Below, piece after piece: positions 13,283 to 60,746 of a stretch of DNA of 64,000 nucleotides. This stretch comes from Eledone cirrhosa. Lineage: Eukaryota. Position 1 is the first letter of the stretch. Each line of letters starts with the position of its first letter. The position numbers were made by a program, and so were the translations under genes. The notes beneath the pieces were generated by a model that made no database searches, was not told the DNA's origin, and worked only from the letters and a program-made list of their open reading frames with translations. The DNA lies in NCBI GenBank assembly GCA_964016885.1, contig OZ024741.1, forward strand, positions 410,192,001-410,256,000, written 5' to 3'.

Positions 13283-13482
13283 ACAAAGAGGGTGTGGCAA
13301 GATACCAAGTGGACCATAACGCACCAGAGTACTCGATACTTGGGGTAGTAGAGTGGGTAATAAGAAAAGATTCAGGCCCCCGAAAGCTGAGCTCAGGCTG
13401 TTTCGACAGCAAGATCCGAACAGTTCGGATCTAGCTGTCGAAACAGCCTGAGCTCAGCCGTCGGGGTCCTGAATCTTTTCCT
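13283..13482 (-). mobile_element. Fold-back mini-insertion of the PLE family B tail
   Basis: Homologous to ~21545-21670; hairpin centred at ~13422; (TA)n on both sides. Confidence 0.8.
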
Positions 13483-13623
13483 ATATATAGAAAAACAATG
13501 TTGCCTCTGATTGAGATGAAGCAAGAGTGTATTTCAATACATATATAAATGAGAAAACTCGTCACTAGAACAGTCGTTAAAACAGCTAAATGCTGCCAAA
13601 GACAGTGAAGGGCAAAAATGCCT

Positions 13624-13775
13624 GAGGACAGAGACCAGCAGCCAGTGGTCAACAGAGAGACATATGAAATATAATGTCTCAGAGGAGAGAGACCAGTGGC
13701 CAGTGGTCAACAGAGAGACATATGAAATATAATGTCTCAGAGGAGAGAGACCAGTGGCCAGTGGTCAACAGAGAC
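13624..13775. repeat. 58-bp tandem repeat, ~2.6 copies
   Basis: GAGGAGAGAGACCAGTGGCCAGTGGTCAACAGAGAGACATATGAAATATAATGTCTCA starting at 13624, 13682 and 13740. Confidence 0.9.
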
Positions 13776-13901
13776 ACAACCTTCAAGGTGGGTGACAGGC
13801 AGATGAAATATAGAAAAGATTGAAAGAGGAGAAGGAGTCCACTGGCACACAAAAGTGAAGGAAATAAAGATACATGGGAGAATAACAAATGAAAACAATA
13901 A

Positions 13902-14080
13902 TAATTGTTTCTACTTAAGGCCAGCAATTACTCAGTGCATTACTGGTACTTTATTTTATCGACCCCGTAAGGATGAAAGGCAAAGTCAACCTCGGCGAGA
14001 TTTGAACTCAGATCGTAAAGGGACGTAACTATGCTGAAAAGCATGGCGTTCGACCCTCTACCGATACTGCCAATCCACCG
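13902..14080 (-). mobile_element. tRNA-derived SINE
   Basis: Same family as 1006-1378. Confidence 0.85.
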
Positions 14081-14167
14081 AATAATAATAAGATTATATA
14101 TACATACATATATCTATGTATATACATATATGTATATATATGAATATATATATATATGTATATATTC

Positions 14168-14612
14168 TAGGGCGGGTAAAATTCCCGAGATCCATGGACG
14201 AGTTCTCTCCAGCGGTCTCTGTCCCTCATTATCGCTGCCATGTCCTGCGTCTCCAACAGACCAGTGTCTGTCCTTCGGGCATCAACATAAGTTAACGTTG
14301 GTCTTCCTCTTCCAGTGTGTCCATGTAGGGGCTCCCAAAGGAGCACGGAGTGCAATGTAAACTCTGGATGTCGGTGAGCATGTCCAGCTAACCTCAGTCT
14401 CCTCTGTGTCACTTTTGAACTGACTTTTGGAGGCTCCCATACAGCTCTGAGTTTTTCATCCTCAGTGTATACTGATTAATGTTCAGAGCCATCCTCAGCA
14501 TTCTCGTGTAGCACCCATCCACCATCTGAGTGAGTTTCTTGGTCAATGTCCAAGTCTCAGACCCGTACAGCAGCACAGACTCCACTACAGCAATGAAGAG
14601 GCGGAATTTCAG
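14168..14612 (-). pseudogene. RTE-like LINE 3' fragment
   Basis: Minus-strand translations [16 protein letters not shown] and RRLRLAGHAHRHPE..LLWEP..GRGRP. Confidence 0.75.
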
Positions 14613-56574: not shown

Positions 56575-58024
56575 ATATATATATATATATATATATATAT
56601 ATATATATATATATATATATATATATATATACGATATTAAACGTTTAATATTGTTTAATATCGTAAAATACTCCAAAATCTGTTGAGTGCTTTTATATCA
56701 GTTATAAAATATTTACTCGTTGTAACCCAACATTTTAAATACAACTTTTGCATATATATATATATATATATATATATATGTGAATATATGAAATTAACGT
56801 TAAGACAGATGCTGCATAATCATATTTATTTGGTTATACGTGACACCCATGCGGATCTATTATGTGATCATTACAACAGCACTGATGTGACACAATTATG
56901 TGCAGGAGTTGAAAGTCCAGAGCTCTGTCAACCAGATTCCACCGTCAAAACATCAATTCATGCTGCAGAAGACATGTACTGAAGGTGCCACACAGTGGGA
57001 CCGAATGGGAAACCAGATGGTTGCTAATGTAACTCCTTAACCACACAGCCATGCCGACATCTATTCCAGAGTCTGTTGCTTTATCAGGTTTGTACTTATC
57101 CTGGTTTCTGTGATGTGAAACAACAGAGAATACAAGGCTCCAGCCCAGGACAGTAGTCCATCACAGGGTTAAAGTCTGTCTTGAACCCAGAGGCTCATCA
57201 GGTTGGTGCTTATCCAGGTTTACATGTGTGTGTCAGCTCACACCTATGCAGGTTTAGCTGGCCTCCTCCAAGGTATATCTCGTTGGAGGTGTCTTGGGTA
57301 ATTTAATGAGGGGAACCCCAGTCCTATCATCTCATTTCTACAGCTGAGAAAACTGGAGCAACGTGAAATAAAGTGTCTTGCTCAAGGAAACAATACATCA
57401 CCCGGTCTGAGAATTGAACTCACAACCTTTCGATTGCAAGCCTAATACTCTAACCACTAAGCCATGCGCACTTCGTAGCATGAAGTGACTGAAACTACAA
57501 GACTCCCCGCTAGACAGGATGCCAGCTTCAGCTAAGTATACTGGAGCATTGTGAAGTGTTTTGTTCAAGAACACAACACTCAATCCAGGAATTGAACCCA
57601 CGACATTATGATCGCCAACACTTACCACTAGGCCACACACCTCCACCATGTTACATGATAAAGGGCTGAGATGTCCACCATATTGTTTACTTCATGTTTA
57701 TAATTGTAATTTTTTCAATTTTTTATCTGCAATCTATTCGAGTTTTATCTGAGTAGGTAACAAATTAGGTGACTAATGAGTTAATTTTCTTTCAGTTTAG
57801 CAGCTTATCATTCACTTTTAATTACTGCACAAACTACAGTTTGAGATAGGTGCCAGCTGTGTGTTCTGTGTGATTTACAGCTTCACTCGGCAGCCATGCG
57901 GTCTCTGGTTCAATCCCTCCCTGTGCTACTTTGGGCAAAGTGTCCAATGACTTGTCACTCTAAGTTAGTAGATAAAAACTGTGCTGAAACCTGATATATA
58001 CATACATATATATATATATAAACA

Positions 58025-59400
58025 TACTTAAATTTCACTCCCAACTAATTAGTTTCTGAAAGGGATTAAACGTACTATCCGAAGAGAGCACGGAGAAGCC
58101 TTTCGTCATCAGGGAAGTCTATTCTCAGCTAAGTTTCCAGGCAATACGTGGACAGTACGTTTAATCCCTTTCAGAAACTAATTAGTTGGGAGTGAAATTT
58201 AAGTAAGTTAATTTTATAATTTTCTTACTTTACGTTTCTCACATTATTGTTCTGCTACCCCATACATTGAAGCACATAGTTACTAAGACAAAACCTATAT
58301 ATTTGCTAACATAAGTATGCATCTGTGTATATATATGTTACTAGATATACTAATTCTTTATAATTATCTCCAAAATTATTTGTCGAGCAAAAATGGCCAA
58401 AACTGCTGCTATAGTAACGGTGCGGCTGCTGTCTTACTAACAAACCACTATCCACTGATTGACCTCGATGTCACGTGATTGATTCTTTTGAATTTGCCAC
58501 CGACGCAGAGGCAGTGATTTTATCAATGGCTTGGAATTAGTCCTCGCTTTGCTTTTTCCATCCACTGAATTATTTTTGTATAAGTTACCTGTGTCCACGT
58601 ATTGCCTGGAAACTTAGCTGAGAATAGACTTCCCTGATGACGAAAGGCTTCTCCGTGCTCTCTTCGGACAGTACGTTTAATCCCTTTCAGAAACTAATTA
58701 GTTGGGAGTGAAATTTAAGTAAGTAAGTTAATTTTATAATTTTCTTATTTTACGTCTCTCACATTATTGTTCTGCTACCCATGCATTGAACCACATAGTT
58801 ACTAAGACAAAACCTATATATTTGCTAACATAAGTATGTATCTGTGTATATATATGTTACTAGATATACTAATTCTTTATAATTATCTCCAAAATTATTT
58901 GTCGAGCAAAAATGGCCAAAACTGCTGCTATAGTAACGGTGCGGCTGCTGTCTTACTAACAAACCACTATCCACTGATTGATCTCGATGTCACGTGATTG
59001 ATTCTTTTGAATTTGCCACCGACGCAGAGGCAGTGATTTTATCAATGGCTTGGAATTAGTCCTCGCTTTGCTTTTTCCATCCACTGAATTATTTTTGTAT
59101 AAGTTACCTGTGTCCACGTATTTCCTGGAAACTTAGCTGAGAATAGACTTCCCTGATGACGAAAGGCTTCTCCGTGCTCTCTTCGGATAGTACGTTTAAT
59201 CCCTTTCAGAAACTAATTAGTTGGGAGTGAAATTTAAGTAAGTAAGTTAATTTTATAATTTTCTTATTTTACGTCTCTCACATTATTGTTCTGCTACCTC
59301 ATGCATTGAACCACATAGTTACTAAGGCAAAACCTATATATTTGCTAACATAAGTATGCATCTGTGTATATATATGTTACTAGATATACTAATTCTTTAT
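58025..59400 (+). mobile_element. Retrozyme-like tandem array: ~2.4 copies of a 516-519-bp non-coding unit plus a 130-bp inverted 5' arm
   Basis: Units start at ~58150, 58666 and 59185; one HHR per unit; no ORF in the track; (TA)n on both sides. Confidence 0.8.
58628..58709 (+). ncRNA. Type I hammerhead ribozyme (copies at 59147-59228 + and 58037-58118 -; 3' half at ~58150-58193 +)
   Basis: ACTTCC-CTGATGA-C.GAAAGG..CCTTTC.A-GAAA-CTAATTAG-TT-GGGAGT; palindromic helix III. Confidence 0.85.
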
Positions 59401-59509
59401 ATAAACATATATATATGTATATATATATATATATATATATATATATATATATATATATATATATATATATATATATATATATATATATGTCTATATATAT
59501 GTATGTCCA

Positions 59510-59980
59510 ATTGCCTTCGCATGGCTTCCTGCTTCATCTAGCGTGGATATCCCCCCACCCTGACCCAAGCTGCTCTCACCCATTCCTGTGAAACAGACCG
59601 CACCACAGTCCTCTCACCTCACCCCGCCCTCCCAACACTCCTGTTCCTTTCCCTCTCACCTACCACCCATCACCCTACCACTCCAGTGACATATCCTCCG
59701 TTCCTTTAGCATCCTCTCTTCTGACCCCATCACTTTTCGCTTTTTTCAAAACCCAACCATTACTGCTTTTAAGCTCGCCCGCAACCCCCGCGACCTCCTG
59801 GTTCGCTGTTCCTTTTCTTCCTCTCCCACGATTCCACCCGGCTCTTATCCTTGTTCCCGTTCCCACTGCAACACTTGTCCCTTTATTTCCACCCTCACCA
59901 CTCTTACAGGCCCTAACGGGTCTTTCCGTATCCGCCATTCCTTCACCTGCACATCCACCCACGTTGTCTATGCTCTCCGG
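59510..59980 (+). pseudogene. Decayed Neptune-like PLE linker/GIY-YIG fragment (a sixth family)
   Basis: Translations RGYP, LTYHP and YPCSRSHCNTCPFI..TGPNGSFRIRHSFTCTSTHVVYAL. Confidence 0.8.
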
Positions 59981-60548
59981 TGGTGTGTGTGTTATTATAC
60001 GTCCGTATGAAGCTAAGAAAAAATGTGTGTGTATATGTGAGTAAAAGAGTGTGTGTGAATGTAAGTACGAAGCTATGAGCAAAAGTATGTTAATATAAGG
60101 GTGTGTATGTGTGTATACAGAGCAGTGGAGGGAAAAGTGAGCATATATATAGTCGGCCTGTTGTAAGAGAAGCTGCTAATGATAAAGGAATTTTTATCCA
60201 GGATTGATTGGTTGGGCTAACCTTAATTAGCATCAATATTAACAATTCTTTCTTCTCTGAAGATTCTATACTAATAGCATTAACAACAAAGATGTGTGCA
60301 TAAGACAATATGAACTGTTATTTGCTGTATAGATGAAACATAATGTAAGAAGTAAAGTTTGGTTTTAAACGTATTGCCTCTCCTTCATTTGTTCTGCTTA
60401 TAACTATATATATATATATATTGCTTAAACTTTAATCTGTTATTTTAATATATATATATATATATATATATATATATATATATATATATATATATATATA
60501 TATATATATATATATATATATATATATATATATATATATATATATATT

Positions 60549-60746
60549 AAGAAACCAGGTGGACCATAACGTACCAGAGTACTCAGTACTTAGGGTAGTA
60601 GAGTGGGTAATAGGAAAAGAGTCAGGACCCCGATAGCTGAGCTCCGGCTGTTTAAAACGTCTTGCCTTCTCCTTCATTTATTCTCCTTATATATCTACCT
60701 GTGGAAATGGCCGGAACCCAGCCGTCAGGGTCCTGACTGATTTCCT
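60549..60746 (-). mobile_element. Diverged fold-back insertion of the PLE family B tail
   Basis: GTGGACCATAAC..GTAGTAGAGTGGGTAATAGG arm plus a short inverted arm ending TTTCC-(TA)n. Confidence 0.7.

Follow-up and report, generated by a model that had tools for sequence, protein, structure and literature searches.

Fold-back Penelope-like insertions in Eledone cirrhosa share a 5′ edge that likely marks the end of a capped RNA

In LINE-1 twin priming, both cut ends of the target prime reverse transcription on one RNA, and the resulting inversion is joined by microhomology. In long terminal repeat (LTR) retroelements, minus-strand strong-stop DNA, a short product that a tRNA primes close to the RNA 5′ end, is extended until it runs off at the cap and is then transferred. 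Here we describe short fold-back copies of a Penelope-like element of Eledone cirrhosa, found in a stretch of 64,000 nucleotides (contig OZ024741.1 of assembly GCA_964016885.1, forward-strand positions 410,192,001 to 410,256,000; hereafter the window) and in a wider sample of the genome. The copies have two fixed 3′ ends, one 5′ edge, an extra G, separate arms and independent origins. We consider it likely that these hairpins are independent minimal Penelope-like insertions, in which both ends of a cut TA repeat primed two complementary DNAs (cDNAs) that ran off the capped 5′ end of the messenger RNA (mRNA).

Canonical Penelope-like elements form inverted truncated copies with one-sided tails at (TA)n targets (PMC8557442), and an internal promoter has been described in the Penelope terminal repeat, with its start mapped in Drosophila virilis (PMC2377424). 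PMC8557442 treats the way in which these elements form inverted and tandem repeats as an open question. In PMC3846280, palindromes at the junctions are interpreted as self-priming on an antisense template, with self-priming favoured and the choice between a sense and an antisense template left undecided. The element studied here resembles the canonical endonuclease-bearing elements (PMC8557442; PMC3846280) in having one reading frame with putative reverse transcriptase (RT) and GIY-YIG-type parts, a hammerhead ribozyme in its terminal repeat and partial tandems, as well as an inverted 5′-truncated copy, a tail at one end only, (TA)n targets and palindromes at inverted junctions. It differs from them in that its tail is 80 bases long, as against 30-40, and in that most of its copies are hairpins of about 200 bases that lack an open reading frame (ORF). 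The data also point to a capped sense RNA copied twice, unlike the self-priming on an antisense template put forward in PMC3846280. For the Poseidon element of Anolis carolinensis, two internal start sites that delimit the tail, and unprocessed RNA as the main template, were shown in vitro (PMC11167929); our element likewise has two internal start sites, and its main template appears to be unprocessed RNA. Poseidon cuts and extends both strands of AT-rich DNA, as is proposed here. Its start sites lie in the ORF, whereas here they lie in the 5′ untranslated region. The cited portion of that work deals with neither the inverted join nor the 5′ stop, and it reports no RNA reads at the ribozyme cut, whereas approximately 13 of 240 copies start there in E. 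cirrhosa.

As in LINE-1, both cut ends would prime on one RNA, but LINE-1 pieces do not overlap and their second priming site is variable, whereas here both sites are fixed and the arms mostly overlap, which produces a palindrome. Unlike strong-stop DNA, the product is primed by target DNA and becomes fixed in the genome. An untemplated 5′ G has been ascribed to cap copying in L1 and SVA (PMC3287187), where it marks full run-off to the cap, and a G would have the same meaning here. Short non-coding derivatives of a terminal repeat, with a hairpin shape and a TA context, also recall animal non-LTR retrozymes (10.64898/2026.07.22.740005) and miniature inverted-repeat transposable elements (MITEs), but the copies described here do not form tandems, are missing the 5′ half of the ribozyme and did not spread as one amplified unit. 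A search of open-access main texts returned no work that deals with cap run-off, with twin priming or with joining through helix II for Penelope-like elements, or that ties their inversion point to the cap or to this helix. Inverted truncated copies, tails, (TA)n targets, junction palindromes, an internal promoter and two start sites are already known; we did not find the cap signature in print.

Fold-back architecture and its fixed ends

We number positions from the A at window position 21531, which is +1, and from the matching base in other copies. Four copies in the window (13283-13484, 32457-32663, 56385-56576 and 60549-60747; Table 1) have the common architecture that a preliminary description of this DNA had assigned to them: each is flanked by (TA)n and combines a long tail arm in antisense orientation with a short arm in sense orientation that stops at TTCC/TATATA. 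Copy 4 is not a clean fold-back, as about 42 bases at its junction were taken from its own flank. The arms of copy 1 are joined bluntly, +2 to +1, and the junction insert of copy 2 ends in a G (32602) where the element has a T; this G is likely to be a cap-derived base. The apex of copies 1-3 had been placed in helix II of the hammerhead. The turn does fall there, at +1 to +7 on the 3′ strand, but the natural loop (21523-21526) is not used, the turn lying 5-11 bases downstream of it. Three junctions of other families had also been assigned to helix II. For those near 56190 and 58150 this holds for one arm only, with the partner arm approximately 40-110 bases upstream of the ribozyme core, and by eye the 58150 join uses a 5-base microhomology unrelated to helix II. 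The junction near 2890, which has a 3-base overlap, could not be placed relative to helix II, as the 5′ core of that family was not retrieved.

To the four window copies we added copies from the rest of the genome. A DNA search with the subfamily A tail came back empty because common words are skipped, and a pattern search was used in its place, which found the exact tail followed by TA at 15,245 sites. The first 94 of these copies comprised 60 fold-backs, 24 copies without an inverted arm, 6 long copies, 3 others and 1 that could not be parsed; 1 Mb of evenly spaced C1-C4 DNA contained 26 copies of the main family alone, 20 of them fold-backs. We then pooled 249 copies from exact-tail, C1-C4 and tail-selected loci, all picked blind to their upstream sequence. 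Copies less than 200 bases from a locus edge, duplicates and loci picked by upstream sequence (group 'other', 92 of 342) were excluded from the counts of ends. An inverted arm was present in 168 of the 249 copies. It stopped at +58 to +63, in CCTA, in 153 of them, and in 138 of these 153 it entered TATA directly; the counts on 153 copies given below omit the remaining 15. The fixed 3′ ends lie at +60/61 and +140. Full-length copies continue beyond the tail end to an ATG at +231/232, and both start sites are therefore internal. The tail end is thus not the RNA's 3′ end, which had been proposed as one of the two priming sites.

At the other side, the arms share one sharp 5′ edge at +1/+2. Short arms ended at -5 to +9 in 117 of the 153 copies and beyond -5 in 4. 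Long arms ended at -5 to +9 in 95 copies, beyond -5 in 4, at +50 to +61 in 16, which is where the inner cDNA would be met, and beyond +61 in 7. The correlation between the two arm ends was weak (rho 0.18), and the same edge was found in copies without an inverted arm, 14 of 72 of which start at -3 to +3. Apex positions are therefore not uniformly spread. The arms are joined bluntly, through 1-6 shared bases or with inserts, many of which were copied from the arms. Two other causes of the edge were considered and rejected: a 3′ splice site, as the arms retain AG and the upstream bases vary, and, for the main edge, cleavage by the ribozyme, whose cut at +41 does not match the edge at +1. Long T runs stand right before +1 in L264, L269, L336 and L338, consistent with untemplated A added at the cDNA end.

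The frame of the parent element is 5′-truncated in the window and had no match in Pfam. An intact relative of 721 amino acids lies at L208:926-3091, with no match in Pfam or the PDB; the Atlas clusters closest to it (0.96-0.99) include some members with HTH_animal, GIY-YIG and RVT_1, and RT and GIY-YIG-like motifs can be recognized in it by eye. The terminal repeat was found in direct orientation just upstream of the ATG in approximately 13 of 30 ORF-selected loci, the partial-tandem feature of a pseudo-LTR, and a hammerhead in the pseudo-LTR, an inverted 5′-truncated copy and a one-ended tail are all present. The hammerhead is of the U3-A8 variant known from Penelope-like elements (PMC4209133), and a strict CTGANGA scan missed it because of this core. 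In an alignment of 14 copies from several subfamilies, 89.8% of the cells were paired, compared with 27-51% in slid controls, a fraction that is biased in favour of the structure because the structure was drawn from one aligned row. Helix II showed three compensatory pairs across the 14 copies, and cleavage is predicted from the sequence. In an Rfam scan of the window, the ribozyme at 21483 fell below the threshold of every model, one weak hammerhead was found at 12418-12464, and the hairpins gave sub-threshold microRNA matches. Free folding of 21470-21592 was no better than that of shuffles (z 0.14), and likewise for +1 to +142 (z 0.99).

Table 1 Features of the fold-back copies and of the parent element in the window
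Feature	Position	Strand	Remarks
Copy 1 (subfamily B), long arm	13283-13421	-	tail end to +2
Copy 1, short arm	13422-13484	+	+1 to CCTA (13480-13483)
Copy 2 (subfamily A), long arm	32457-32595	-	stops at +1
Copy 2, junction insert	32596-32602	.	7 bases
Copy 2, short arm	32603-32663	+	+1 to CCTA (32659-32662)
Copy 3 (subfamily C), long arm	56385-56518	-	stops at +7
Copy 3, short arm	56518-56576	+	+5 to CCTA; join with one shared base
Copy 4, long arm	60549-60653	-	stops near +19
Copy 4, junction insert	60650-60691	+	88% copy of flank DNA 60362-60402
Copy 4, short arm	60701-60747	+	GAAA to CCTA
Parent element reading frame	18737-20173	+	putative RT and GIY-YIG-type, 5′-truncated, 478 amino acids
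Type I hammerhead, U3-A8 core variant	21483-21578	+	long helix II; cut predicted after 21571 (+41)
TATA-like box	21502-21509	+	at -29, overlaps the 5′ side of helix II; putative function
Initiator-like T(C/T)AGT motif	21529-21535	+	A at 21531 is the edge for both arms and the predicted transcription start
CCTA(T)	21587-21591	+	inner reverse-transcription start, short-arm end
Tail, 80 bases	21591-21671	+	its end is the outer start site

Helix II, self-priming and independent origin

The preliminary description proposed that the two cDNAs are joined by base pairing through the self-complementary helix II, which would give the ribozyme fold a structural part in integration. Such joining would need an arm that crosses the loop. 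We found that an arm extends that far, to the 5′ strand of helix II (-9 or further), in only 4 of the 153 junctions, none of which uses helix II pairing when inspected by eye, although the edge of the main family does fall inside this helix and the helix is conserved with compensatory changes. Across subfamilies, the edge tracks a sequence motif and not the loop: in the predicted fold, +1 lies within a stem in subfamilies A and C and is unpaired in B, and T-(C/T)-A-G-T is invariant there. The edge is also seen without an inverted arm, and in a second hammerhead family, described below, it lies upstream of the core. In 4 of 30 loci, long copies have inverted arms that likewise stop at CCTA but cross the ribozyme from end to end. 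Microhomology derived from a stem does occur occasionally, with 3 of 100 rows of the second family joined through complementary helix I strands, and the 3-base overlap at 2890 could be a stem. The distribution of arm ends nevertheless largely refutes joining through helix II, which we now regard as highly improbable.

The other part of that proposal, in which both cut (TA)n ends prime reverse transcription, is supported by the arms, with two fixed sites. In 7 of the 153 copies the arms do not overlap, and the short arm contains sequence that is absent from the long arm; therefore, neither arm is a copy of the other. Together with the two fixed 3′ ends, these pairs have the two separately primed, inverted cDNAs that characterize twin priming. 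The (TA)n flanks would mask a target-site duplication around the whole unit. In 44 of 71 copies, compared with 10.7 expected, the two arms carry the same variant of the variable linker, so that one RNA or one source usually serves both arms; in L062, the arms have two variants. The hairpins also arose independently. We counted 132 kinds of junction in the 153 copies, and 14 identical long arms carried 13 different junctions. On a tree built from 138 rows with 126 columns, 19 changes of the label of fold-back or long copy were needed, with 7 changes forced by well-supported branches, compared with 31.7 in shuffles. The copies neither share one junction nor form a clade, as a non-autonomous unit of the MITE, short interspersed element or retrozyme kind would, and a single ancestral hairpin amplified as a unit is excluded. 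Two points count against our reading here: the identity of the arms may partly stem from later gene conversion, and the tree is built on few columns and leaves most of its forks unresolved.

It is also possible to imagine that one cDNA snaps back and self-primes its second strand, as has been proposed for an antisense template (PMC3846280), or that the hairpins were amplified as a non-autonomous unit. The shared variants of the two arms would fit with this, as would the 4-8-base loops that are common at the junctions and the recurrence of some junctions, one of which accounts for 26 of 100 rows. However, the recurrent junctions are found in different subfamilies, L062 combines arms from different variants, and the non-overlapping arms and the presence of the extra G on both arms do not fit with a snapped-back strand. 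Approximately 7 joins have loops of 0-1 base, which are hard to make by snap-back. We therefore consider self-priming or amplification as a unit very unlikely, and favour two cDNAs that were primed separately.

A candidate promoter and the predicted ribozyme cut

Among 196 arms, the base preceding ends at +1 was G in 17 cases and A in 4, compared with G in 6 and A in 13 at +5 ends (p 0.003). When the first 100 of 9,748 genome matches were counted by hand, the base before +1 was G in 35 rows, A in 8 and C in 57, and the same kind of count at +6, which served as a control, gave G 21, A 22 and T 57. The extra G was present on long and short arms, and immediately after (TA)n. A second Penelope-like family, with a canonical hammerhead (window 56009-56291 and 60791-60894; L032, L072, L156, L231, L236, L273 and L361), forms the same mini fold-backs, with an edge just upstream of the ribozyme core. 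Its first 100 rows had G before the edge in 77 cases, A in 12 and T in 11. For the hand-counted rows, the Fisher p was 0.003 at +1 of the main family and 1e-5 in the second family. Seven long copies of the second family have TATAAATA or a one-base variant of it at -29 to -33, and in subfamily A of the main family the spacing of the TATA-like box is -29. The factor common to both families is a putative promoter, not helix II. From the TATA-like box, the initiator-like motif and the apparently cap-copied G, we infer that the edge is an RNA polymerase II start site. In the contigs of two of four sequencing runs of unspecified kind, summed depth rose approximately eight- to twelvefold across 21530; this signal is weak and not independent, and we did not use it as evidence.

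Several observations weigh against this interpretation. The start site is deduced from DNA alone. C was the commonest non-T base before +1 (57 of the 100 rows), and 26 of these 57 C rows represent one recurrent junction, with the short arm reaching +1 and the long arm starting from +7, for which a cap offers no explanation; among the other C rows, 4-6 reflect a templated variant and 7 the partner arm. Some of the G's may likewise be the base of the partner arm, although this is impossible for 8 of the 17. Subfamily B shows the same edge despite lacking a TATA-like box at -30. A few arms extend past +1, and calls at -1 to -5 are blurred by T runs. The recurrent +1/+7 junction occurs in several subfamilies, with examples in L130, L153, L226, L322 and L341.

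Another explanation of the edge is that reverse transcriptase stalls where a longer RNA is folded or bound by protein, and adds an untemplated C there. In the Anolis system, the corresponding RNA stretch is bound by the element protein (PMC11167929), and +1 is located at a stem in subfamilies A and C. The same position is unpaired in subfamily B, however, and stronger, GC-rich stems would already have been passed by an enzyme arriving at +1. The control at +6 showed no G excess, and the spacing from the TATA-like box is about 30 bases in two families whose ribozymes differ in position. A stall is thus unlikely in our estimate, and a start site remains the preferred explanation of the edge.

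A second, minor edge coincides with the predicted ribozyme cut. Approximately 13 of 240 long arms begin at +41 to +43, compared with about 15 over 27 neighbouring positions; these numbers come from a hand check, used in place of an automatic count that was inflated by indels. In L071 (L071:9860), L168 and L354 (L354:1309), both arms begin at the predicted cut. The view that the template was uncleaved RNA thus stands for most copies and not for this group, and a minority of templates was likely cleaved by the ribozyme. Arms that start at +42 may be taken as a sign that the U3-A8 ribozyme cuts in vivo. Because an RNA that starts at +1 lacks the 5′ half of the ribozyme, the cleaved templates would be read-through transcripts or RNAs cut in trans.

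Surrounding elements and proposed mechanism

The window contains other elements. A different RT and GIY-YIG element, with Pfam matches to RVT_1 and GIY-YIG, occupies 16134-18400, and a near-identical 1.1 kb piece of it lies at 3720-4820. An 11 kb satellite array with a period of approximately 40 bases spans 39206-50104 and 52332-52710. Long palindromes are found near TA repeats at 54674-55016, 2961-3196, 34249-34573 and 14618-14970; the first is 97% self-complementary over 343 bases and falls below the threshold for a microRNA precursor. Hammerheads of other families, some with a very long helix II, are located at 452-511, 6326-6399, 7024-7099, 12418-12464, approximately 12870-12970, 27860-27920, 31681-31741 and 58630-58710. 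Fold-backs of the family at 452 (L005 and L376) turn upstream of the core. At 58018-59401, a partial tandem of a hammerhead-bearing unit of about 520 bases is combined with an inverted arm, an arrangement that resembles a retrozyme-like array. In L012, L018, L022, L023, L092, L140 and L226, copies of different subfamilies adjoin in one TA run; TA tracts that earlier copies left behind have thus repeatedly taken up new insertions.

We propose that a (TA)n tract would be cut and that both of its ends would prime at two internal TAT sites. Both cDNAs would then run off the capped 5′ end, usually of one RNA, on which the outer cDNA would either displace the inner one or halt at it. Their 3′ ends would be joined bluntly, through 1-4 shared bases or with short templated inserts, either by host end-joining or by a template jump of the enzyme. 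In the main family, the start would lie in helix II by chance, giving an mRNA that is without the 5′ half of the ribozyme and unable to self-cleave, and longer transcripts, cut by the ribozyme at +41/42, would make up a minority of the templates. Use of the same two sites in the 3′ repeat would give rise to long copies. The source of the RNA could be either full-length elements or truncated copies with a retained promoter. At L356:1140 and L347:1240 (approximate positions), a copy from +1 or +2 directly follows an ORF piece in the same orientation, in one case across a T run, a pattern suggestive of a jump to an internal site from the RNA 5′ end.

On balance, we lean towards a broader interpretation, in which twin priming on a single capped sense RNA generally gives rise to the inverted repeats of Penelope-like elements. 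In that case the hairpins, which number in the tens of thousands, would be trapped strong-stop-like products that map the transcription start, both starts of reverse transcription and the ribozyme cut in vivo. In the main family, a promoter placed inside the hammerhead would make the element's own mRNA uncleavable and leave read-through RNA cleavable. The G on both arms, the non-overlapping pairs and the second edge, where the ribozyme would cut, favour a capped sense template that is copied twice. Short hairpins of this common class could pass for MITEs or microRNA precursors, and the same reading could be used in any genome, from DNA alone, to map where the promoters of Penelope-like elements lie and whether their ribozymes are active.

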